This document shows, piece by piece, positions 35,517-46,262 of a DNA stretch of 64,000 nt (the stretch's first letter is position 1; the number at the start of each line of letters is the position of its first letter). The notes under the pieces are model-generated. The model was not told the origin of the DNA. It made no database searches and worked only from the letters and a program-made list of their open reading frames with translations. The position numbers and the translations under genes were made by a program. This DNA comes from Eubacteriales bacterium (lineage in GTDB: Bacteria > Bacillota > Clostridia > Oscillospirales > CAG-272): contig JAZRBV010000014.1 in assembly GCA_045635225.1 (NCBI GenBank), positions 3,544 through 67,543 of the forward strand. The letters run 5' to 3'.

Positions 35517-36080
35517 TCAAATTGTGGGAAAATTTAGTATTGTGTTGGTTATACCGTAGATTGACGTTATGGCGAATGGTACCAGCATTGTGAGTGCCAG
35601 AACATTGATGACCCTGCCCGATATCCGGGGCCGCAGCAGATCGTACATCCGACATCCGATATACGCGCCGAGGCAATTCATAAATATATCGGTAAAATCA
35701 AAGCCGCCAAAGCCCGAGAGCATCTGGAAGATCTCAACGCCGAATATTACGATCAAGGTGCTCCATATTACCGTCCTCGTATCGGTGAAGAAGCGGTAGA
35801 GCATACCGTAGGGGATGAAGCAGAGGACGTTCGCAAAGAAGGCAATGATGCCGACAACGCTTCCTCCGCGGAAAACTACGTATGCGCTGTGAAAGGGAAT
35901 GATGCGGTAGGTAAAGCGTTTCCATATCGACCAGCTCTGATTTCGGATCAGATTCAGCTGATCTGTTCTGTTACATTTGAAGATGATCGCCCACGCGATG
36001 ACGATGCACACCGTGACAAAGAGTGCTGCTATCAGTCCGCGCGCGACCTCTGCGTCCTTTTTAAATGCTTTCAGCTTCAT
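35517..36080 (-). CDS. VanZ family membrane protein
   Basis: ANVLCFIPYG, VEIFQ and FDFTDIFMNCLGAYIG motifs. Confidence 0.82.
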   Translation of the reverse strand: MKLKAFKKDAEVARGLIAALFVTVCIVIAWAIIFKCNRTDQLNLIRNQSWSIWKRFTYRIIPFHSAYVVFRGGSVVGIIAFFANVLCFIPYGMLYRFFTDTRTVIWSTLIVIFGVEIFQMLSGFGGFDFTDIFMNCLGAYIGCRMYDLLRPRISGRVINVLALTMLVPFAITSIYGITNTILNFPTI

Positions 36081-36102
36081 ATATTCATTTCCTCTACGCG
36101 AT

Positions 36103-36525
36103 TTATTGACCTGCACAGCGGCGCTCGAGCTCCGCGATGAATTCGTCGTTGTCGGTGACACTCACTACAGTGAGGTCAAATTTGTTGTACTTTATCACGA
36201 CGTGCTCAAAGGCGTTTTTCAACGTCAGCATCGAGTCGGAGTGGAATTTTCTCAGCTTCACGGTACCGCGTATCGAGGAATAGGGAAACTCGCGCTTAAG
36301 TATAAATCCGTACTGCACGAAAAGCGAGTCCGAGCGCAGCTCGACGTAGCCGAAAAGCGGAGAGATGAGGAAATACAGCACCAAAAGATCCGTTGGTACT
36401 ATGGCAAACAGTGAGATCGGAGCAAACACTGCTACTACGGTCATCGCCGCGCAGATCGCGAGTGACGGCACCGCAATAAGAAAATACAGCTTATCTATTT
36501 TCGGTGAAAATCTTTTTGACGGCAT
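36103..36525 (-). CDS. Small membrane protein with a bacterial PH-like domain
   Basis: Two TM helices followed by a beta-rich region (LFVQYGFILKREFPYSSI). RBS aaggaga. Confidence 0.6.
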   Translation of the reverse strand: MPSKRFSPKIDKLYFLIAVPSLAICAAMTVVAVFAPISLFAIVPTDLLVLYFLISPLFGYVELRSDSLFVQYGFILKREFPYSSIRGTVKLRKFHSDSMLTLKNAFEHVVIKYNKFDLTVVSVTDNDEFIAELERRCAGQ

Positions 36526-36541
36526 AATTTCTCCTTCGCCG

Positions 36542-36964
36542 TTATTGGCTTTTGCCGCAATACGCACAGAATGTTGAGTCGGCATCGATGGATTTTCCAC
36601 AATGCTTGCAGAATTTACTCTCTCGCTTACCGTTAGCGACGGCATTTGCGGTGATTTGAACGGCTTCGCTGATAATTTCAGCGGTTGAGGTAGCGATAGC
36701 CGTCATATCCTCTTTGTTTTCTTCATGGATGTAACGAACGGTGCGCGCTCTCATTTTCGCGATCTCGGGTCCGAAGCCTATAAAAATACCGCTGAAGCTA
36801 GCGATCATACCGAACACGGCGAGAAACGTACCGATCATAAAGTCGTTGCTCTCGAAATCACCAAATCCCGAAACGGCGAGTATCACGCCGACAATACAAA
36901 GAGCGACTCCAAGAGCGCCGACTATTTTAAATATTAGCAGATAGCGAGGTTTTGAACGGTTCAT
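36542..36964 (-). CDS. Membrane protein with a C-terminal zinc ribbon
   Basis: Two TM helices and FCKHCGKSIDADSTFCAYCG. Confidence 0.8.
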   Translation of the reverse strand: MNRSKPRYLLIFKIVGALGVALCIVGVILAVSGFGDFESNDFMIGTFLAVFGMIASFSGIFIGFGPEIAKMRARTVRYIHEENKEDMTAIATSTAEIISEAVQITANAVANGKRESKFCKHCGKSIDADSTFCAYCGKSQ

Positions 36965-36978
36965 ACGCTTTTTCCAAT

Positions 36979-37638
36979 CTATATTCTTTTTAGTAAAATA
37001 TCAATATAAAAATCAAACATATTTGCGGTATTCATAACCGCGCGGTATACCAATATTCCGAGGAATATTATCATGACGGATGAGACGGTGACGAGTGCCT
37101 TGATCCTTTTTGGCGAGTTCTTATATATCAGTCGGTAAACAAGGTAGCCTATCAGAGCACCCACGGTGTTGGTGACCAGATCTACCGCGGAAAAAGCTCC
37201 TATGTTTGATATCAGCTGCAACAGCTCAAAGCCAAAGCTCAGAAGTACGGACGGTATGACCGTGTTGAGAAACTTACACCTTTTCGCAAAATAGGATGTA
37301 TATATGCCAAACGGTATAAAAACGATCACGTTCAGTATATCCTGTCGAGCATCAAAAGGATCTGTTTTCCATATGTCAGACTTGAAAATTACAGCGAAGC
37401 TCTCCTTCACAAACTGCAACTTTTCTCTGAGAGTCATAGCGCCAAAAAAGTAATAAGTGTCGGTAATTGTAACCTTTAGATTACATTTTAGCGAAATTAC
37501 CCATACTAAAAGCGAGAGATACAGAGCAAATAAAATAACACTCAAAATGTAAAGCGTGTGGGTCGGCGTGCAGTTCTTGCATTTAATTTTAGAAATCATT
37601 TGCGCCTTTGCTTCATCCGTTGGGATGACACCTTCCAT
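36979..37638 (-). CDS. VanZ family membrane protein
   Basis: LNVIVFIPFG, FELLQ and DLVTNTVGALIG motifs. Confidence 0.82.
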   Translation of the reverse strand: MEGVIPTDEAKAQMISKIKCKNCTPTHTLYILSVILFALYLSLLVWVISLKCNLKVTITDTYYFFGAMTLREKLQFVKESFAVIFKSDIWKTDPFDARQDILNVIVFIPFGIYTSYFAKRCKFLNTVIPSVLLSFGFELLQLISNIGAFSAVDLVTNTVGALIGYLVYRLIYKNSPKRIKALVTVSSVMIIFLGILVYRAVMNTANMFDFYIDILLKRI

Positions 37639-37791
37639 TTATAAATAGTATTACGTATAACACGGTTGAACGTATGCCGTGACGGAAAACGTTTTGCCCG
37701 ATAGCCGATAGCTTTCCATTGCCCGACTGTTTTTCCGGTAGTAAACGATGCGCGTTAATTGTGGGAGCTTGCGTGGCAAACGTCCCCGACA

Positions 37792-38309
37792 CCAGACAAC
37801 CCCTCACAAAAGTGGGTGGGAGCGCTGAGGTGCCCTAATAAAACCAAAGCCCCGGAGGATAAGCGTGATGTCCTAAACGGACAAATCACGCTAAGTTATG
37901 ATTGCCCCTGCGGGCAAGCTATGAGTTATGAAATGCTACGCATTGTTATGATTGGCTTCGCCAAGTTTAAAAATTGATAGGCAATCATATCATAACGTTC
38001 GCGTAGCAAACTCATAACGGCGAGCAAGGCGAGCCTCATAACTCTAAACTAAAACCAACAAAAAAGAGCAGACATACAAGAATTACAAAATCGGGGTTGT
38101 CTGGAGCCACCCGGGTATTCACCGATGGTGAATATACCCACAACCTACGCCTGAAGAGCGAGCTCTTCGATCTGCGGTTGGGGAATGCGAACCGGACTTC
38201 GCTTGCGCGAAGCTCGATGCGAAGCGAGAGCAGCAGCCCCAGACAACCCCTCACTAAAGTGTGTGGGAGCGCTGAGGTGCCCTAATAAAACCAAAGCCCC
38301 GGAGGATAA
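37792..38309. repeat. 71-bp direct repeat (37792-37862 and 38239-38309) downstream of tRNA-Thr
   Basis: ccagacaacccctcac...ccccggaggataa, 69 of 71 bp identical by hand alignment. Confidence 0.9.
37895..38042. repeat. Head-to-head mini-array: GTTATGA copies then TCATAAC copies with hairpin spacers
   Basis: GTTATGA at 37895, 37925 and 37945 (variant at 37918). TCATAAC at 37990, 38012 and 38036. Confidence 0.85.
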
Positions 38310-38323
38310 CCTCCGGGGTTGTC

Positions 38324-38399
38324 TGGAGCTGCTACCCGGATTCGGACCGGGGACCTCATCCTTACCAAGGATGTGCTCTACCAGCTGAGCCATAGCAGC
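38324..38399 (-). tRNA. tRNA-Thr(GGT)
   Basis: 76-nt cloverleaf GCTGCTATGGCTCAGCTGGTAGAGCACATCCTTGGTAAGGATGAGGTCCCCGGTCCGAATCCGGGTAGCAGCTCCA with encoded CCA. Confidence 0.96.
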
Positions 38400-38612
38400 A
38401 TTTACCACGAAGATGTTTCCCCGTGACGCAGTACATTATAGCAAAATTTTATGCGTTTGTCAATATGTTTTTTTGCTTTTTTTCTTAAATTTTTAACTCT
38501 TTTTGAAAAAAATCGAATAATAGGGAATTTTTTATTTAGTATTTTTTATTTGTTCATCAGTTGTTTATGATTTATTCATATTTATTTGCTACAATATATT
38601 AGTCGCAAATAC

Positions 38613-38880
38613 GGAGTATAACCGGTCGGAAGAATGCGAAAATAAAAACTTAATATTTGGACCATTAGCTCAGTTGGTTAGAGTTTTGTATCATAATCAA
38701 GCGTGAGCGAGTCTGTGCTCGCACAAGCGAGGCACGCGCAGATTGCTCCGTGAGCGCATCGTTTTGCGATGCAGGGTGCGAAGCGCCCATGCCCCGAGGC
38801 GGCTCACAAGGAGTATAACCGGTCGTATAAATGCGAAATTTAAAATTTAATATTTGGACCATTAGCTCAGTTGGTTAGAG
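38613..38880 (+). repeat. 71-bp duplication including the 5' 25 nt of tRNA-Ile2, separated by a 126-bp hairpin-rich insert
   Basis: Copies at 38613-38683 and 38810-38880, 65 of 71 bp identical. Confidence 0.9.
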
Positions 38881-38932
38881 CTACCGGCTCATAACCGGTC
38901 GGTCCTAGGTTCGAGTCCTAGATGGTCCACCA
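38856..38932 (+). tRNA. tRNA with CAT anticodon, most likely tRNA-Ile2 (lysidine type)
   Basis: 77-nt cloverleaf GGACCATTAGCTCAG...CTCATAA...GGTCCACCA. The GGACC acceptor stem resembles Firmicutes Ile2 rather than fMet. Elongator Met is not formally excluded. Confidence 0.9.
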
Positions 38933-38933
38933 A

Positions 38934-38970
38934 CAAAAAGAGGTCAGCCCTTGCGGTTGACCTCTTTTTG
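38934..38970 (+). terminator. tRNA terminator
   Basis: caaaaagaggtca / tgacctctttttg stem. Confidence 0.8.
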
Positions 38971-39174
38971 TTGTCGGAGCCGTCTCGATTGACTCAACCT
39001 AGTTTTCGCAGGCAAAGCCGAGAAAATAGGTTCGCATTCCCGCCGCAGAGCGCGTCGAGCTCGCTCGTAAGCGGCAAGGCGAGGAATATTGATGCTCGTC
39101 GTCAAAATACTAGAGGCTATCTCTAATATGTTGTAGCACTACAAGGGGCTGTAACGTATTTTCCCCGGTGAATA

Positions 39175-39203
39175 TTGACATAGAATAAGTTATATGCTAC
39201 AAT
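39175..39203 (+). promoter_or_regulatory. Sigma-A promoter TTGACA-N17-TACAAT
   Basis: Motifs at 39175-39180 and 39198-39203. Confidence 0.75.
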
Positions 39204-39228
39204 TATTCGAGAGAAAAAAGTCGGGAGG

Positions 39229-40296
39229 GTGGCAATGTTACTTTTATTGAGACCTAAGAACGGATCTTATGTGGGCCTTGCGAGCGAATATCAGACTAAT
39301 TTTTGTACCGAGGGTGCTAAAAGGCTGCGTGCTGATATGGACGCGGAGCAGTTAAAATTTATTTGGAACGACGTTGCTCCCGGACAAGACAGAGACGAGC
39401 ATTCTCACCCTGCGCCGGTATGCTTTGAGTGGCGGGACAGACCTTGTGAGATAGGTCACAATAACAGGAAAATATATACCTTTTTGGTTATATCCGAAAA
39501 TGCGGACATGTCTTCTCCCGAGGTTTATATCACTGCCGGCTCGTCGATGAAGGTTTACAATCTTAAAATTGCAACGAGGTATTACTGGTTCGTGCAGAAA
39601 AACGGACGGCGCAGTGAGGTTTATAGCTTCGTTACGGAGGATATTGCTCCTCGCTTTCTGCGCATAGTAGGCGTTTCAAACGTCCGTGATATGGGAGGCT
39701 ACAAGCTTATCGGCGGCGGTGTAATACGCCAGGGGCTGATGTACCGAGGAAGTGAATTTGAAAACAAGGTGCATTTATCCAAGGAGGGTGCAGAGGCTCT
39801 TGCCGCACTTAAAATAAAAACCGATCTGGATCTTCGAGGTGAGGCGAAAATATCGGTTGAGCATCCGACCTCGGAGCTACTCGGAATGAACAGGATATCT
39901 CTTGTCTCGGAGGCGTATGCAGGCTTGTTTGACGAAGGCGAGAGGGAAGAGCTTTATACCTTCTTTTCCACCTTTGCGAGCCCTGAAAATTATCCTATTT
40001 ATTACCACTGCCGAGGGGGCGCTGACAGGACGGGCTCATACGCCTTTATCCTTGGCGCACTTTACGGAATGACTCTTGAGGATCTGATCCTTGAATACGA
40101 GATCACTTCTATTTCTATCTGGGGCGGAAGAAACCGTAATCATCATCTCTTCAAGGAATTTCTTGACCGCTTCAACCGGCTTTCCGGCGAAGCTCTATCC
40201 GATAAAGCGAGAGCCTTCCTCCTCGAGTACGCCGGTCTTTCAACGGCGCAGATAGATAAAATCTATGAAATCGCCGTTTGTAAGGACGGAAAATAA
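39229..40296 (+). CDS. Tyrosine-protein phosphatase (PtpB/IphP-like) with N-terminal extension
   Basis: NVRDMGGY, DLDLR and the CX5R P-loop HCRGGADRTG. Confidence 0.88.
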   Translation: MAMLLLLRPKNGSYVGLASEYQTNFCTEGAKRLRADMDAEQLKFIWNDVAPGQDRDEHSHPAPVCFEWRDRPCEIGHNNRKIYTFLVISENADMSSPEVYITAGSSMKVYNLKIATRYYWFVQKNGRRSEVYSFVTEDIAPRFLRIVGVSNVRDMGGYKLIGGGVIRQGLMYRGSEFENKVHLSKEGAEALAALKIKTDLDLRGEAKISVEHPTSELLGMNRISLVSEAYAGLFDEGEREELYTFFSTFASPENYPIYYHCRGGADRTGSYAFILGALYGMTLEDLILEYEITSISIWGGRNRNHHLFKEFLDRFNRLSGEALSDKARAFLLEYAGLSTAQIDKIYEIAVCKDGK

Positions 40297-40634
40297 AATC
40301 GGAGAAGAGATATAAGTAAATGTTGTCGGTTCGACTTTCGTTAAAGATGGTCCACCAAAATAAAAAGACGAACCGTGGTTCGTCTTTTTATTTATCCAAG
40401 ACCGAAGGGGTTGGTATGGCATCAAGCGATAGCTTGTATTTCTCCGTCTTCCTTCGTTCTTGATTCCATACTCGCCTTTAGCGAGATTCTATGCCGCAAC
40501 GAGTTGCGGATTCCATTCACGGCTTTGCCGTGATTTGGTACGAAAGCGAGAAATATTGACGCTCGCCGTCAAAATCCTAGATGTGACCACTCGAACCTCG
40601 CAAGAGGATTGGTTTTCGTTTTGTTTTTTCTATG

Positions 40635-40666
40635 AATTGTCCCCGACAAGCTGTCGGGGACAATTC
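40635..40666. terminator. Terminator downstream of the Fic gene
   Basis: gaattgtccccgaca / tgtcggggacaattc perfect stem. Confidence 0.72.
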
Positions 40667-40685
40667 TGTATGTTTGGTTTGTGTT

Positions 40686-41537
40686 TTATTCTTCCTCGTA
40701 GTAATATGAATAGTCAATACCCTTCATAAACAATTCTCTATCGTTAATTTTGTCTGTTAAAGCATTCTGTATTAAAGAGAAAATTTCGTTTGCGCTAAAA
40801 GGACTTTTTTTCATCGCCTCAAGATATTTAGTTTTATCTATCCCGCTCCAATCAACGCATTTACCTAAATTCTTTTTCAAAATCAGATCAAGCCAAATTC
40901 TCGTAGCTCGTCCATTACCTTCCATAAAAGGATGCGCTACGTTCATTTCTACGTATTTTTGAACGATCTCTTCGAGAGTGCTTTCGGGCATTTTTTCAAT
41001 CGATTTCAAATTTTCTTCCAGATACAATGCGTTAGCAAATTTGAAACCGCCCTTGCTGATATTATGCGTTCTGATTTGACCGGCAAAATCGTAAAGGCCG
41101 CCGAAAATAAAGGAGTGAATTTGCTTTAGTCCCTTGACTGTTCCGACCTCAATGTTTTCAATCAATCCGCCCTCAAGCAAAGAATATGCCTTTTGCTTGC
41201 TTTTCTCGTCAATCGTTGTGCCCATTGTTTTCATCCAATGAGTAAATGCCGCCGTTTTTTTGCTCGGGATAACCATGATCAGTGTATTTACACCGTCATC
41301 GTCAATAACATCGGTTAAATACGATTTACCATCCTTAGCCATCAATTTCAGTTGTCCGCAAATTGAAGACAACTGAGGATTTCTGCTTTTTATGGTATTC
41401 CAATATTTTCTCGGAGATTTGCTACCCGTTAATGCTTCGGCAATATCTACAGCGCAAAACCACCACTTGGAGCTTTCATCATTCCATACCGCGCGCACGG
41501 GAATATTGTCAAAAAAACGAATAGAAGTTTTGATCAC
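40686..41537 (-). CDS. Fic/DOC family protein with an N-terminal BRO-like domain
   Basis: Canonical [12 protein letters not shown]. The N-terminal VRAVWN...[11 protein letters not shown]...YW is BRO-N-like. GTG start with RBS aaggagg. Confidence 0.88.
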
Positions 41538-41753
41538 TTTTGCCTCCTTATAGCAGTCATTTTGCCTAACTGAAATTATCATATATATTATATCACTTTT
41601 TCCCGTTTTTTGCAAGTCAAATGTGTAAAAATGCCAAAATTGCAACGTTGATTTTTAGGCGGATGAGTTGTCGTCTTGATATCGCGAAGCGACGCCACAT
41701 GTAAGGGGACAAGCACGCGCCTCGGTGATAAAACACATTTTGTGTCACGCATC

Positions 41754-41782
41754 TTGATTTTTAACGTTTAATGTGCTATAAT
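41754..41782 (+). promoter_or_regulatory. Sigma-A promoter TTGATT-N17-TATAAT
   Basis: Motifs at 41754-41759 and 41777-41782 with an extended -10. Confidence 0.6.
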
Positions 41783-41871
41783 TAGTTGAAAATAAAAATA
41801 TGTTAAATAAGGCACTTGTTTTTTAAAAAGCAAATGCTTTATTTTAAAAAGCAACATTTGTGAGGTTTGAA

Positions 41872-42822
41872 ATGGCTTGTAATTTATGTGGGGGAGAAAG
41901 TGGAAAGTACTTTCTTTGTTTTAAGTGCAACAAACTTAAAGATGAAGGCAAGGCATTAAAGTGCCCGGATTGTAGCAAATGGTTTTACGCGGATAAAGGT
42001 TGCTCTTGCAAATCAGCAACACCAAGACCAGACCCCAAAATCGTTAAAGCGCCGCCGGCGCAAAAAAACGAAAAGGCTGCCGGAGATGGTGTCTGTATAG
42101 TTTGTGCCAATAGCGCCCCGAATGGTCACCTTTGTCGTGATTGTTACTACGAAATGCGCGATTTCAAGGACAGTTTTGACAAAAATTCAAAGCCGTTTGA
42201 TATGAAAGATTATTATTTTAATCTTCGATCAAACATATATCGCATGAAAACGTTCGACTTTATCAAAAGCAACTGTAATAAGTTGATGGCTATTGCGAAT
42301 TTTGTTTTTGAATTATTCCATGATACGTCTTTGACCGATAGGGTAGTGAATGATATAAAGGATATTATTGAATCTAAAAAGCCAAAAGAAGAAGTAAAGA
42401 TTTCTGAAGAAGTTAAGCAAAAGGATAGCCACAAAGAAGAACTTAGAAGAACGTGCGACGGGCACTATGTTAAGAGTGATCCTGAAATTGTGGTTGACGA
42501 TATATTGTATGAAAATCGCATAGTTCATTGCTATGAGAAAAAGGTTCCTATCGATTCTGATGAACAAACTATAAAATGCGATTGGTTCATTCCGGTTACG
42601 GACAGTAGACATGGTATTTACATAGAATATTGGGGAATGAACACAAAAGAATATCTGCAAAATAAAGAACGCAAACGAAAGGCATACAAGGATCACGATA
42701 TACCTTTAATAGAAATCGAAAAAGACGACTACAAAGACCGTCAAGGATTGAGTGATAGAATAATATCTGAAATAAACAAACTCGCAAAAAAATATTACAA
42801 CGTAATAGATTATCTCAAATAA
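41872..42822 (+). CDS. Zinc-ribbon protein with a putative C-terminal PD-(D/E)xK-like nuclease domain
   Basis: Five CxxC motifs. C-terminal KS..E...D.LY...YEK...DWFI...IYIEYWG...K...Y pattern. AT-rich codon usage. Confidence 0.62.
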   Translation: MACNLCGGESGKYFLCFKCNKLKDEGKALKCPDCSKWFYADKGCSCKSATPRPDPKIVKAPPAQKNEKAAGDGVCIVCANSAPNGHLCRDCYYEMRDFKDSFDKNSKPFDMKDYYFNLRSNIYRMKTFDFIKSNCNKLMAIANFVFELFHDTSLTDRVVNDIKDIIESKKPKEEVKISEEVKQKDSHKEELRRTCDGHYVKSDPEIVVDDILYENRIVHCYEKKVPIDSDEQTIKCDWFIPVTDSRHGIYIEYWGMNTKEYLQNKERKRKAYKDHDIPLIEIEKDDYKDRQGLSDRIISEINKLAKKYYNVIDYLK

Positions 42823-43141
42823 AAGGTGCGAACGAGTAGTCATTATTTCAATTCAATTACCTAACTATTAGTAGCAGTTCAACTTTCGTGAATCTTGGTC
42901 CACCAAAATAAAAAGACGAACTTCAGTTCGTCTTTTTATTTATCCAAGACCGAAGGGGTTGGTATGGAATTGCGGCTCGTCCGCGTATGGCATCAAGCGA
43001 TAGCTTGTATTTCTCCGTCTCCCTTCGTTCTTGATTCCATACCGTCTGTGACGGATTCCATACGACACTTCGTGTCGATTCCATACCGCAACAAGTTGCG
43101 GATTCCATTCACGGCTCTGCCGTGATTTGGTACGGAGGGGT

Positions 43142-43349
43142 GTGAAGATGAAACTTACTATTAGAGTACAGCGAAGAATTGGCTATTAAAATAACAAAGC
43201 TTTGCTTTGAATACAAAATCGACTCCAACACCGTTTTTCAGATAAAGAAGTCCTCGTCAAGTGTTTTTGCGAACATAACCGAAGCTCAATATCCGCAGAG
43301 CCTTGCGGATATGCATATGAGGTGTTTGGGAAAGAAATTATTGAATTAA
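43142..43349 (+). pseudogene. Frameshifted, truncated four-helix-bundle protein (23S rRNA-IVP/TIGR02436-like)
   Basis: The frame from 43152 reads NLLLEYSEELAIKITKLCFEYKIDSNTVFQIKKSSSSVFANITEAQYPQSLADM and then diverges. The upstream GTG/ATG is out of frame. Confidence 0.75.
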
Positions 43350-43533
43350 TAAGAGATAAATATAACTTTAGGTAAATATAATGTTTTATAGTTTTAATTT
43401 AGGCTTTCGCAAAGCTTGCTTTGCCGACAAAAGATGGATAGCCTTTACGGTTAACTAGTTTTTTGTTTTTATGGTATGGTTATCGCGAAAAATGAACTGT
43501 AATTAGTCTCTTATTATAATGTTATTGAAAGCA

Positions 43534-43749
43534 TTATATCTTTGCTATATCTATTTGATCGCAAAACATATGTTCTACTTCATGCTCTATGTAAGGCCAA
43601 AGCAACTCGATTATTTGCGATTCACATAGATTGTCCTCTACGGAAAATATGGGACTGATGTAGTATCCGTCTAATCTATACAAATCTTCATCTCTGTTTC
43701 TTTGTCCAATAATGTGAATGTTATCTCTAACAATGATTCTAATATTCAT
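43534..43749 (-). CDS. Small hypothetical protein
   Basis: 71-aa ORF with RBS aaggag in AT-rich accessory DNA. No family recognised. Confidence 0.45.
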   Translation of the reverse strand: MNIRIIVRDNIHIIGQRNRDEDLYRLDGYYISPIFSVEDNLCESQIIELLWPYIEHEVEHMFCDQIDIAKI

Positions 43750-43924
43750 GGTTTAAACTCCTTTGGTTTTCGTTAGTGAACATTTTTCGGATAACCACAT
43801 TAAGTATTATATCTATCGTGAAAAATAAAAAAACCCCCCTAAAACCATCTGCTTGAGAGCACGGCTATTATTCTCTTGCACAATTCGACAAAATATGCTA
43901 TCATATATTTAGTTTTTCCGAAAG

Positions 43925-44899
43925 GTGCGCTATGCTTTTGCGCGGTTTATGATAAACAAAAGAAATCCCGTGCTGATATCCTATATCGGCATCGTGTCGG
44001 TCATACTTATATGGGGACTCGTTCCGCTCGCTAAGAAGACGCTGATAGGCGGCAGCTTCTCGGCGGCGGTGTATAGCACGATCACCACGTTTTCGGCGGC
44101 GTGCGTGCTGCTCGTCTTGTCGCGCAGACGACTTTCCGAGCTCGGGGCGGGCTACTTTAAGGTCGCTGTTCCCACGGGACTGTGTGTCGGACTCGCGAGT
44201 GTGCTTCAGGCTCTCGCATATAACTTTGATACCTCGCCGACAAATCAGGCGTTTCTCGAAAACCTCTCCTGTATCACGGTACCGCTGATACTGCTTTTTG
44301 CTGTGCGAAAGAAGCCGTCTGCTCTGACGGTGGCGGCGAGCATACTCTGTCTCCTATCTTCGATGGTGCTCGCAGGTGTAGTTGATACGGGCATCAGCTT
44401 TAGGGCGGCGGATATCCTTAACGCGGTCGCGGGACTGCTGTACGGAGTCAACATCGCGGTTACGGGAATATATGCGAAAAAATATCAGGCATCGCTTTAC
44501 GTGATGATACAGCTATTTATCCAAGCGGCGGTGTCGGCGCTGATGGCGCTGTCGTTCAATTTTGTCTGTATCGGCGGTGAGCCGATCGACCCCTTCGTCT
44601 TCACTCCTGCCGTGTGGCTCGTGCTGTGCGTTGCGTGTATCGGAATTCTCGCAAATGCGGTGTGCTGGACTCTGCGCACGTCGGCTATGAGATACGTTTC
44701 TGCAAACGTCGTTGCCGTCATGATGCCGTTCTCGGCAGTTATCACGGGCGTCGCGGCGGTAATCGTCGGGCAGGACAGTGCGTCACCGTCGCTTGTGATC
44801 GGCGCTGTGCTCGGACTTGCGGCGAGCCTTATATCGAGTGCTAACGACATACGAGAAAGCAAGAACTCAAAAGATAAAAGCGTTGATTTTTTATCCTAA
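43925..44899 (+). CDS. DMT (EamA) family transporter
   Basis: About 10 TM helices, LIWGL, TSPTNQAFL and a duplicated EamA architecture. Start uncertain. Confidence 0.85.
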   Translation: MRYAFARFMINKRNPVLISYIGIVSVILIWGLVPLAKKTLIGGSFSAAVYSTITTFSAACVLLVLSRRRLSELGAGYFKVAVPTGLCVGLASVLQALAYNFDTSPTNQAFLENLSCITVPLILLFAVRKKPSALTVAASILCLLSSMVLAGVVDTGISFRAADILNAVAGLLYGVNIAVTGIYAKKYQASLYVMIQLFIQAAVSALMALSFNFVCIGGEPIDPFVFTPAVWLVLCVACIGILANAVCWTLRTSAMRYVSANVVAVMMPFSAVITGVAAVIVGQDSASPSLVIGAVLGLAASLISSANDIRESKNSKDKSVDFLS

Positions 44900-45121
44900 A
44901 CACCTTGAATATGTAAAATATAGTTTACAAAATAAACAAAAATACCCCTCGAGATGTCAGATACGCTATAAATTGTAATGCACTTATATAGGTGCAAAAC
45001 AAATAATTTGGGGTTTAACAATGGCAAAGATAAAGAATGATTCTCTTGGCATCGGGGTGACTGCCGCGATTATTGCGCGTCCCGTGCGTAGCTATTTAAT
45101 CAGAGTTAATAATTGCAGGTA

Positions 45122-45150
45122 TTGACTTAATACGACAAATATGGTAAAAT
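45122..45150 (+). promoter_or_regulatory. Sigma-A promoter TTGACT-N17-TAAAAT
   Basis: Motifs at 45122-45127 and 45145-45150. Confidence 0.65.
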
Positions 45151-45188
45151 ATGCTTATGTGCTTTCGAATAAAAAAGTGTGAGGCGTT

Positions 45189-46262
45189 ATGTACTTATTT
45201 TACACTCTGGCTTTATTGATCCCGATGCTTGCGCTGAGACCGCGACGCGAGGGGGATGCGGCGATACTCGATGCGAGATCTACCACCTGCCTCAAGGGAA
45301 TATTCTGTATCTTCGTGCTACTGCACAACCTCGGTCTCGACGTCGCTGACGTGCCGTTCAAGGGGCTTATATGCGAATACTCCGGCGGCATCGGTGTTGG
45401 ACTTTTCTTCTTCCTTTCCGCGTTCGGAATCATCCGCTCATATCAGGCTAAGGGAAACAAATATCTTGTGAAGCTCCTTCTTGTGAACGTGCCTAAGCTC
45501 TGGGCGGTGGCGGTGTTCATAAATGCGATAACTTATTACTTCTTTATGCGAGGAACGCTCACCGGCGCTGACAAGTGGCTACAGATACTAAACCTCGATC
45601 TTTTCAACAATTTGCGACACATCAACCGACATGGCTGGTATATCGCCTCGATAATAGGCCTCTATATCATCTTCGCATTCGTGTATTTTGTGTGCAGTAA
45701 GCTGAAGAGTGAAAAGCGGTTTATCATCGCGGGAATCATTATGGCGGCGGTCGCGGTTTCGTTCCGACTCGCTACCAAGATAGCAATGGAGGGCGGACTC
45801 TATACAAGAGAGATGCCGGCGTTTGCGTTCGGATGCGTCTACGCTACGTTCTACGATAAGATAAACGCATTTTGCTCAAAGCATTTTAAGCTTGGACTTC
45901 TTGTATCGGTGCTCGCTTTTATTCTCGGCTTTGCGATCGAGTTTGAGGCACTCTCTACCTACGCCTCGGTGTTCATAATAGTTTTCGTGTCACAGCGGTT
46001 TACATATTACAGCAAGGCGGCACACTTCCTCGGCAAGATCTGTATCGGTGTCTATCTCTTCCTACACTTCTCGTCTATCGTTATGCAGCCTTTCATCTAC
46101 AACGAATACGTGTGGGTGCTGACGAATACCGGCTTCATTCTCGAGGCGGCGGTGATCATCTACGCCGTGCAGTGCGCGATCGAGCATTCTGTGCGACACC
46201 TGCATCGCTCGATTATAGGAATGAAAGCGCATGAGGCGAGAGCGGATCACGAAAAATCCTAA
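45189..46262 (+). CDS. Acyltransferase family 3 (OafA-like) membrane protein
   Basis: LKGIFCIFVLLHN, GVGLFFFLSAFG, WYI and LGKI...YLFLH motifs, with multiple TM helices. Confidence 0.85.
   Translation: MYLFYTLALLIPMLALRPRREGDAAILDARSTTCLKGIFCIFVLLHNLGLDVADVPFKGLICEYSGGIGVGLFFFLSAFGIIRSYQAKGNKYLVKLLLVNVPKLWAVAVFINAITYYFFMRGTLTGADKWLQILNLDLFNNLRHINRHGWYIASIIGLYIIFAFVYFVCSKLKSEKRFIIAGIIMAAVAVSFRLATKIAMEGGLYTREMPAFAFGCVYATFYDKINAFCSKHFKLGLLVSVLAFILGFAIEFEALSTYASVFIIVFVSQRFTYYSKAAHFLGKICIGVYLFLHFSSIVMQPFIYNEYVWVLTNTGFILEAAVIIYAVQCAIEHSVRHLHRSIIGMKAHEARADHEKS

Follow-up and report, generated by a model that had tools for sequence, protein, structure and literature searches.

Between positions 38,856 and 43,349 of a 64,000-nt window (the whole stretch of DNA analysed; contig C14, GenBank JAZRBV010000014.1, assembly GCA_045635225.1 of an Eubacteriales bacterium placed in CAG-272), a tRNA-Ile2 gene is followed by a series of small genes separated by repeats of its 3' end. 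The region is probably a tRNA-Ile2 integration hotspot with two small decayed islets, inserted by a large serine recombinase (LSR) that targets tRNA 3' ends and has since been lost from the genome. This reading draws on a family of pseudo tRNA ends found across the genus, their link to tRNA-Ile2, their linkage to LSR genes in four genomes, a palindrome formed by the two arms of the site, and the collinearity of the window with an LSR-bearing island. Comparisons were made with a genus set of 121 species genomes, denoted by G codes (G000 being the window's own genome), and related loci, denoted by L codes, include metagenome-assembled genomes (MAGs) from faeces and sheep rectum.

Exact copies of TGGTCCACCA occur in the window at 38923, at the end of the tRNA, and again at 40348 and 42896, and nowhere else; the recurrence described in an earlier, sequence-only reading of this DNA was thereby reproduced. 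As a bare 10-mer the repeat is not significant (1.3 matches expected, at least three in 16 of 100 shuffles), and it is judged real because of its sequence context. The second and third copies, which form the pseudo ends PE2 and PE3, are directly preceded by the T-loop-like GTTCGACTTTCGT and GTTCAACTTTCGT, respectively, and both end in GGTCCACCA. Folding against shuffles places a hairpin with a T-run 3' of all three copies (energies of the first two in the table below; the third at -18.3 kcal/mol, z -9.8), so that the degenerate T-arm and the terminator which the same reading had placed on either side of the copies are both present; a simple terminator scan missed these three A/T-flanked hairpins, which folding reveals clearly. 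The second and third copies also lie inside a longer direct repeat (40329-40545 vs 42877-43137, with blocks of 94, 58 and 58 nt at 89-98% identity) spanning the terminator, a TATCCAAG hairpin and a ATTCCATAC array with variable hairpins, and a second repeat pair (39076-39114 / 40543-40581, 87%) flanks the phosphatase unit and interleaves with the long repeat. When the window's own genome was searched with the 280-nt repeat and the 13-nt T-loop motif, matches were confined to the two window sites, and a dispersed miniature inverted-repeat transposable element (MITE) was rejected on this ground. An Rfam scan of 36000-46000 returned two tRNAs and nothing else.

The pseudo ends belong to a 29-nt motif that recurs across the genus. 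Searching the 121 species genomes with the pattern GTTCRACTWTCGT-N9-TCCACCA, with at most two mismatches, recovered the motif (form GTTCGACTTTCGT-N9-TCCACCA) in 35 of them, in one or two copies each, against 2 matches for the reversed pattern used as a control; its consensus is GTTCGACTTTCGTTAAGCTTGCTCCACCA. Upstream of the roughly 40 copies the sequence is unrelated between genomes and consists of the end of a plus-strand gene, often 3-30 nt away, or of a hairpin array, whereas a hairpin with a T-run, of several sequence types, always stands directly 3'. No upstream complement to a T-stem or acceptor stem was found in these copies, the preceding 5 nt being neither conserved nor complementary; folding as a T-arm or minihelix was therefore rejected, and the motif appears to be conserved as a sequence and not as an RNA fold.

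Where enough upstream DNA is available, the motif lies 0.24-6.4 kb downstream of tRNA-Ile2, in matching orientation, in 13 of 17 contexts, which supports the proposal of the sequence-only reading that the pseudo ends were left behind by site-specific integration at this tRNA's 3' end. The intervening genes vary by species and include a TdeIII restriction-modification pair with SMODS, an Mrr-type nuclease, AAA_15/AAA_21 ATPases, RloB with AAA_21, and BspA-type leucine-rich repeat (LRR) proteins. Relatives thus hold other genes, mostly of defence type, at the corresponding place, in agreement with the view of the window units as foreign, variable cargo. In most genomes the motif and the resident tRNA are identical over 7 nt (TCCACCA) only. 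A co-variation between the last bases of the pseudo end and the resident acceptor stem was sought in 13 genomes and rejected as a general rule, TCCACCA alone being shared and the window forming an exception. In G008 and G019 the trailer past the motif carries an inverted copy of a different tRNA end, which places the junction at about CCACCA.

The enzyme most plausibly connected with these sites is an LSR. In G431 (locus L079) the 6.3-kb interval from tRNA-Ile2 to the motif contains a 520-aa open reading frame (L079 3986-5548) with matches to Resolvase (6e-26), Recombinase (3e-14) and Zn_ribbon_recom (4e-14), which adjoins tRNA-Ile2 and converges on it. Immediately 3' of the CCA of this tRNA stands AGCTTAACGAAAATCGAAC, and after it come a T-rich terminator-like stretch and another hairpin; AGCTTAACGAAAATCGAAC is the reverse complement of the left arm of the motif. 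Three further MAGs have LSRs 81-89% identical to that of G431 with a matching junction, two at tRNA-Ile2 and one at tRNA-Ala(GGC), the end of which likewise reads ...CTCCACCA; one of these LSRs is a pseudogene present in pieces only (L142), so that the LSR-bearing islands are those of G431, L139 and L140. The full AGCTTAACGAAAATCGAAC arm, termed P', is present in G431, L139, L142 and L140. More distant LSRs of the family also adjoin tRNA genes: one with 69% identity lies beside tRNA-Ile2, relatives with 52% lie 130-700 nt from tRNA-Glu 3' ends and one with 48% lies beside tRNA-Ser, those with 48-52% being oriented convergently to the tRNA 3' ends, which suggests that tRNA 3'-end targeting runs through the family.

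Together, the motif consensus and the P' arm of G431 give a reconstructed attP (from attL and attR) of 48 bp, self-complementary at 42 of 48 positions and with arms matching at 20 of 21. A near-palindrome of about this length with inverted arms is the known size and form of LSR attP sites. The pseudo ends are consequently best read as attR half-sites (the P arm) and the inverted arm on the tRNA side as P' at attL; from their sequence, PE2 would be the attR half-site of unit 1, the phosphatase unit, and PE3 that of unit 2, which follows it. The sequence-only reading had pointed to a tyrosine recombinase, an attribution that does not hold: no such enzyme was found on the motif-bearing contig in 18 relatives, the 15 PF00589 matches in the window's own genome include none on C14, and the intact relatives have an LSR beside the tRNA. 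Its statement that the units lack an integrase is borne out, since in addition no LSR or LSR remnant was detected in the window (by tblastn) or on its contig. The best LSR homologue in G000 is 46-48% identical and does not lie beside a tRNA.

The window and the G431 island are collinear, with a similar tRNA (95%, 38855-38933), left-end module (87% over 70 nt, 40591-40659), internal hairpin module (81%, 41684-41741) and pseudo end (94%, 40328-40358, PE2). Unit 2 (40591-42905) thus corresponds to a G431-type island without the LSR and its 290-aa neighbour, in the place of which stands the BRO-Fic gene on the minus strand. Its left end is joined to a pseudo 3' end (...caaaaTCCTAGATGTGACCAC/TCGAAC) and not to the true tRNA, and about 15 nt of the P' arm are gone. 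While attR-type junctions are found at both PE2 and PE3, the attL of unit 2 retains only the TCGAAC of P' and that of unit 1 is not recognisable. The loss of about 15 nt from the recombinase site of unit 2 argues against present mobility, and the different arm variants of PE2 and PE3 point to two separate events.

We infer that an LSR acted on these sites and that the islets no longer move, and the order of events may have been as follows. The intact islets of relatives, of about 6 kb, begin on the tRNA side with ...CCACCA, the P' arm AGCTTAACGAAAATCGAAC and a terminator, followed by the LSR gene and the 290-aa gene facing the tRNA; the far side comprises the conserved hairpin module, a promoter, cargo and the P arm GTTCGACTTTCGTTAAGCTTGCTCCACCA (the "pseudo tRNA end"), and then the native tRNA terminator. 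In the excised circle the inverted P and P' arms would form the 48-bp palindromic attP, with a centre mimicking the tRNA acceptor end, and integration would leave the tRNA intact, supply it with a new terminator and deposit a pseudo T-loop/CCA end beyond the cargo. The 3' end of tRNA-Ile2, ...AGATGGTCCACCA, is proposed as the primary attachment site (attB left arm). The trailer would beforehand have held at least two tandem units with pseudo 3' ends, namely e' near 39106, a pseudo T-arm/acceptor end made up of GGTTCG and TACTAGAGGC and proposed as a secondary landing site, and e'' (40577-40595), proposed as the pseudo-attB used by unit 2; a terminator-plus-array module would have followed each, and each would have received one islet. 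The 215-260-nt repeats after PE2 and PE3 would then be pre-existing tandem trailer units and not products of integration, which would explain both interleaved repeat pairs without any duplication of 215 nt by integration. Unit 1 (about 39116-40357) would now consist of a promoter, the phosphatase gene and PE2 only, and unit 2 would retain the left-end terminator module, the hairpin module, the nuclease cargo and PE3, with the Fic gene at the position of the LSR in G431.

Several points weigh against this scheme. Both island ends lie on one contig in G431 only, and L139 shows no clear pseudo end within 11 kb. LSRs normally recombine attP with attB only, so that tandem insertions require pseudo-attB sites, the use of which is read from junction sequences. 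Unit 1 has no recognisable left-end module, and its status as an islet depends on PE2. The two pseudo ends of the window share GGTCCACCA with the resident tRNA, whereas GCTCCACCA stands in almost every other copy, irrespective of the local tRNA; with a central CC crossover this base should come from attP, and GGTCCACCA would need a variant attP or later gene conversion. The junction of a pseudo 3' end with TCGAAC (e/TCGAAC), found also in G003, G010 and G429 and hence common to four species, could be an alternative native or old fixed form and not the result of one or more deletions. Finally, a cognate LSR (at least 69% identical) is present in 2 of the 121 genomes, against 35 with the pseudo end, and is thus missing from most motif-bearing genomes, which would also fit other routes of cargo exchange.

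Features of the tRNA-Ile2 region (positions in the window)
Feature	Position	Strand	Evidence and remarks
tRNA-Ile2 (anticodon CAU)	38856-38932	+	ARAGORN; Rfam tRNA 70.6 bits; 3' end ...AGATGGTCCACCA
Terminator hairpin right after CCA	38933-38978	+	inverted repeat I3; -33.8 kcal/mol, z -8.1; homologues in G003, G017, G014, others
Native tRNA trailer	38979-39115	+	GGTTCG (39029), ~75-nt hairpin-rich insert, then TACTAGAGGC; modules homologous in G003, G013, G020, G023, G024, G398
Promoter-like site	39175-39203	+	11/12; before phosphatase gene, unit 1
Tyrosine-phosphatase-family gene, cargo of unit 1	39229-40296 (probable start 39235)	+	Pfam Y_phosphatase3, E 2e-23
Pseudo end PE2, GTTCGACTTTCGTTAAAGATGGTCCACCA	40329-40357	+	motif in 35/121 genus genomes; 94% to pseudo end of G431 LSR island
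Terminator hairpin after PE2	40358-40393	+	I7, 17/17 bp; -18.3 kcal/mol, z -7.6
TATCCAAG hairpin and short GTATGG/ATTCCATAC array with variable hairpins; trailer repeat unit	40394-40545	+	repeats D1, D4, D5
Right half of T-loop insert and pseudo 3' end e'' (TCCTAGATGTGACCAC)	40546-40595	+	D7 repeat with 39076-39114
Left-end module: TCGAAC, T-rich terminator-like stretch, hairpin 40634-40666	40591-40670	+	87% over 70 nt to attL-proximal module of G431 LSR island
BRO-N/Fic adenylyltransferase gene, candidate anti-phage	40686-41540	-	Pfam Bro-N and Fic
Conserved hairpin module (gcgaagcgacgcc...acaagcacgcgcctcggtg) and promoter-like site 41754-41782	41676-41782	+	81% identical to G431 L079 7112-7170
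CxxC zinc-ribbon / PD-(D/E)xK-type nuclease gene, cargo of unit 2	41872-42822	+	PADLOC PDC-S69 1e-25; HEAT_CxxC_PD-DEXK 5e-11
Pseudo end PE3, GTTCAACTTTCGTGAATCTTGGTCCACCA	42877-42905	+	arm variant differs from PE2; GTGAATCTTG also in G007, G385, G420
Terminator hairpin (42906-41) and longer ATTCCATAC hairpin array; second trailer-unit copy	42906-43137	+	I8, D1, D4, D5; folding
Frameshifted, truncated four-helix-bundle (23S rRNA IVP / Avd-like) gene	43142-43349	+	weak PF05635

It is tempting to consider that the units are integrase-less minimal cassettes that are still mobile, moved in trans by a recombinase located elsewhere or on an incoming element, in the manner of an integron or of a staphylococcal cassette chromosome (SCC) composite island anchored at a tRNA, yet this appears unlikely. 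In a narrower form, equally tentative, the units that lack an LSR but keep conserved ends (terminator/P' module, hairpin module, pseudo end) would be genuine cassettes moved in trans by the tRNA-end-targeting LSR family, and tandem pseudo tRNA 3' ends could then be maintained as multiple landing pads. Recombinase-less units with conserved ends do recur: G429 holds the left-end module, the hairpin module, three small genes and a pseudo end in 2.3 kb, G010 holds the Fic unit, and G019 and G398 share one cassette (89.6% over 1.8 kb) in different surroundings. Tandem pseudo ends are found in the window, G352, G385 and G420, the order in G352 resembling that of the window (pseudo end, trailer with pseudo 3' end, cargo, pseudo end), and the pseudo end is, as noted, far commoner than its cognate LSR. 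Set against this, neither unit has a complete site pair, in view of the truncated P' arm of unit 2 and the missing left end of unit 1, and the best LSR homologue of the genome is, as stated above, only 46-48% identical and not at a tRNA. The units further carry their own promoters and terminators, unlike integron cassettes, and the repeated sites correspond to half of a 48-bp palindromic attP and not to attC hairpins, so that the integron analogy of the sequence-only reading has to be given up.

An explanation without any mobility is improbable. A former tRNA duplicate would here have given rise to the pseudo end and its terminator, inherited vertically as a functional element, for instance a signal for 3'-end processing or termination; the trailer would simply have been duplicated in tandem to give the repeats, and the genes between them would have been gained and lost by ordinary recombination. 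The motif does often stand 3-30 nt past the end of a plus-strand gene and always just before a terminator, the 215-260-nt repeats reach well past any att core, and tRNA trailers of the genus are full of tandem hairpin-rich modules and tRNA fragments, with or without cargo. Having no upstream T-stem or acceptor-stem complement, the motif cannot, however, fold as part of a tRNA, and a termination signal would not explain why the left arm of the motif matches, inverted and at 20/21 positions, the sequence abutting the tRNA beside LSR genes in four genomes; nor does the inverted copy of a different tRNA end in the G008 and G019 trailers fit.

That the units are remnants of tyrosine-integrase islands, prophages or integrative and conjugative elements (ICEs) at the tRNA, with the repeats as displaced tRNA 3' fragments, is very improbable: integration at tRNA 3' ends is commonly the work of such integrases (Islander; PMC5704250) and the genome has its 15 PF00589 matches, but no tyrosine recombinase shares a contig with the motif in the 18 motif-bearing genomes, the identity with the tRNA mostly ends after 7 nt, and the motif is palindromic with the tRNA-side junction and linked to a serine recombinase. 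The sequence-only reading had itself named deletion remnants of large prophages or ICEs as an outcome that would speak against cassettes; derivation by deletion from integrase-bearing islands agrees with the data, and the large size does not, the intact islands being of about 6 kb.

Taken together, the locus represents a familiar kind of genomic island in an unusual form, rather than a novel system of integron type or any other new kind of system. The closest analogue, in mode of working only, is the SCC composite island. Like the SCC elements of staphylococci and enterococci with their Ccr LSRs, the islets would have been integrated by an LSR at the extreme 3' end of a conserved housekeeping gene that is kept active, and, as in SCC and pseudo-SCC arrays, small cargo islands, many of them recombinase-less, stand in tandem and are bounded by repeated copies of the integration site (general background; PMC6222049). 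The target there is rlmH, whereas here it is the 3' end of a tRNA (tRNA-Ile2 or tRNA-Ala) and its pseudo copies; the site here is a 48-bp palindrome mimicking the T-loop-to-CCA end, and the cargo is of defence type.

Next in closeness, again by analogy, are the cis-mobilisable elements (CIMEs) that accrete at the att sites of ICEs, and islands anchored at a tRNA whose cargo units are degraded. In CIMEs and site-specific accretion of the ICESt1/ICESt3 type (PMC5704250), integration genes are lost, att-derived repeats are kept and the elements stand in tandem at the 3' end of the target gene, but a CIME retains attL as well as attR and descends from an ICE with a tyrosine recombinase, while here a serine family is involved and the attL arm is lost. 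By strict definition the window units are not CIMEs: recombinase genes are indeed absent, but unit 2 has lost its attL arm to deletion and unit 1 shows none. The same source describes integrative and mobilisable elements with tyrosine recombinases as users of tRNA 3' ends and site-specific ones with serine recombinases as disrupting dispensable genes. Islands of tRNA-targeting tyrosine integrases (Islander-type islands, Prochlorococcus tycheposons) offer a tRNA anchor, a displaced tRNA-like fragment at the far end and arrays of degraded cargo-only units at a hotspot; they differ in enzyme family, and here the block of identity with the tRNA is 7-14 nt, the rest of the fragment being an element-borne palindrome arm.

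With integrons the locus shares serial small gene units separated by repeated sequences resembling recombination sites. It has no intI, attI or Pc, and its repeats are LSR attP half-sites and not folded attC: PF00589 is missing from C14 and from the motif contigs of the 18 relatives, promoter-like sites precede both the phosphatase and the nuclease genes, and the 29-nt motif has no internal dyad, its partner arm lying at the other end of the island. Compared with LSR elements in general, the window lacks the LSR gene, and the usual attP of about 50 bp with imperfect inverted arms is matched by the 48-bp form reconstructed from the motif consensus and the G431 arm.

Integration into tRNA genes is usually credited to tyrosine integrases; the enzymes here, an LSR family, seem to be aimed at the extreme end of these genes, with Ile2 and Ala as targets of the nearest members, Glu and Ser as those of distant relatives, and an attP that mimics the T-loop-to-CCA end. 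The 48-bp attP and the tRNA-end attB provide a testable site pair. The LSR reading would account for a conserved 29-nt motif carried by some 30% of the species in an uncultured gut genus, and this motif can be used to delimit small defence islets in fragmented MAGs. Two candidates are added at the level of annotation, the BRO-Fic gene (PDC-S04) and the CxxC PD-(D/E)xK nuclease (PDC-S69); apart from these and the LSR/tRNA-end aspect, the locus is an ordinary decayed genomic island. Were the units instead mobilised in trans, they would represent a serine-recombinase, tRNA-anchored platform of defence-gene cassettes in small-genome gut Clostridia, working like SCC composite islands or integrons.

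Profile searches agree with the gene content given in the sequence-only reading (Y_phosphatase3, BRO-N/Fic, CxxC nuclease and a broken four-helix bundle). The phosphatase gene has a paralogue on contig C80 with 69% DNA identity. The Fic protein matches NCBIfam NF046029, "protein adenylyltransferase Fic" (3e-84, 281 bits vs a cut-off of 230), and, over its full length, the PADLOC candidate system PDC-S04 (5e-131); its gene occupies the position of the LSR gene in intact islands, and in G010 a protein 84% identical stands at the corresponding place with other cargo beyond. The CxxC protein gave no Pfam match and no solved relative by sequence; in other gut metagenomes, genes for homologues are often found immediately behind tRNA genes. 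For both the BRO-Fic and the CxxC proteins the names are annotation-level and the functions predicted. The product of 43142-43349 is 73-93% identical to the N-terminal part of intact homologues (117-aa PF05635 proteins; 4e-19 for that of G019), the gene natively following a ATTCCATAC-type array. The Fic and nuclease cassette had been described as visibly AT-rich; it is AT-rich (GC 0.33-0.40), but the low GC is not confined to it and runs from 40600 to about 43850, beyond the third copy of the tRNA end.

The conserved hairpin module precedes cargo promoters in 8 related loci and marks an internal boundary before the cargo. As an "L-module" (gcgaagcgacgcc...aagcacacgcc.cggtgccaaaa) it was considered as the left recombination end of a cassette and rejected; it is rather an internal hairpin/promoter module and not an att site, since it is also found before an unrelated LRR gene (C74) and inside the G431 island. 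On contig C74 (500-2600) the hairpin module and promoter, with another structured leader, precede a large zinc-ribbon/BspA-LRR surface protein gene. A conserved structured leader of about 150 nt (gtgcgacacagttgaatatt...aactgtgtcgca...terminator-like hairpin), which by its sequence looks like a riboswitch or attenuator, stands before different exported or LRR genes in several genomes (L080 700-880; L069 8400-8560; L079 7230-7400; L018, reverse, ~5330-5130). Just past the LSR stop codon, islands aimed at different tRNAs have a conserved element of about 200 nt with a long stem (ctcttgaca...tgtcaagag; L079 3790-3990; L134, reverse, after tRNA-Ser; L019 5120-5241).

The assembly of G000 measures 3.26 Mb in 91 contigs, most relatives having 1.2-2.6 Mb. 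Its tRNA clusters include duplicates (Gly-Asp-Val, C48 and C60) whose 3' ends are identical, contamination is estimated at 3.6%, and the assembly may be a mixed bin. Exact-protein look-ups with two flanking genes found no conspecific contigs.

The tRNA at the head of the locus is one of three CAT tRNAs in the genome. Of the others, one shows initiator features (C1 opposite A72 and a GGG/CCC anticodon stem) and the other is elongator-Met-like, which identifies the window tRNA (GGACC...GGTCC acceptor stem) as tRNA-Ile2 by elimination; presumably it resembles Bacillus tRNA-Ile(CAU). The terminator type of 38933-38978 trails tRNA-Ile2 in many relatives. Across the genus, tRNA-Ile2 trailers consist of tandem units that close with a tRNA-like 3' part in which the T-loop is split (GGTTCG, a hairpin-rich insert of about 80 nt, TCCTAGATGG). 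Such split-T-loop units (window 39029-39115; L019 4860-4975; L080 440-640) are arranged in tandem with a period of ~190-216 nt in G398, G420 and G010.

The module type of 40394-40545 follows tRNA or pseudo ends in G019, G009, G364 and G385. Among the ATTCCATAC/GTATGG arrays (window 40394-40545 and 42942-43137; L021 4930-5200; L028) the linker motif is kept, whereas whole hairpin units differ or are added, and at least one hairpin shows a compensatory change (cacgcc/ggcgtg vs cacggc/gccgtg). In G019, G009 and G008 the array lies directly 5' of an intact four-helix-bundle (PF05635, Avd-like) gene beside a tRNA or pseudo tRNA end.

Upstream of tRNA-Ile2, a 71-nt duplication (tRNA leader and the first 28 nt of the tRNA; window 38613-38880) flanks a GC-rich hairpin element at 38684-38809. 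In related genomes (G003, G010, G011) the element is found downstream of the tRNA, ends in ...ggagTATAACCGGTCGG and continues into the 3' half of a tRNA, from its anticodon loop onwards; it has the look of a footprint left by a different type of insertion, directed at the anticodon loop. The trailer of the neighbouring tRNA-Thr (38324-38399, minus strand), at 37792-38330, contains duplicated pieces (37792-37862 / 38239-38309; 71 nt, 97%), a direct copy of the tRNA-Thr 3' end with terminator arm (38092-38107 / 38314-38329) and an inverted one (38232-38250). Within it, a palindromic array (37862-38080) sets three GTTATGA+hairpin units against three hairpin+TCATAAC units. Many species of the genus (G006, G013, G017, G019 and others) carry several dispersed copies of this array family in each genome, and the family resembles a MITE-like or structural component of tRNA trailers; in G360 an array of the GTTATGA type stands between tRNA-Val(CAC) and a pseudo end.

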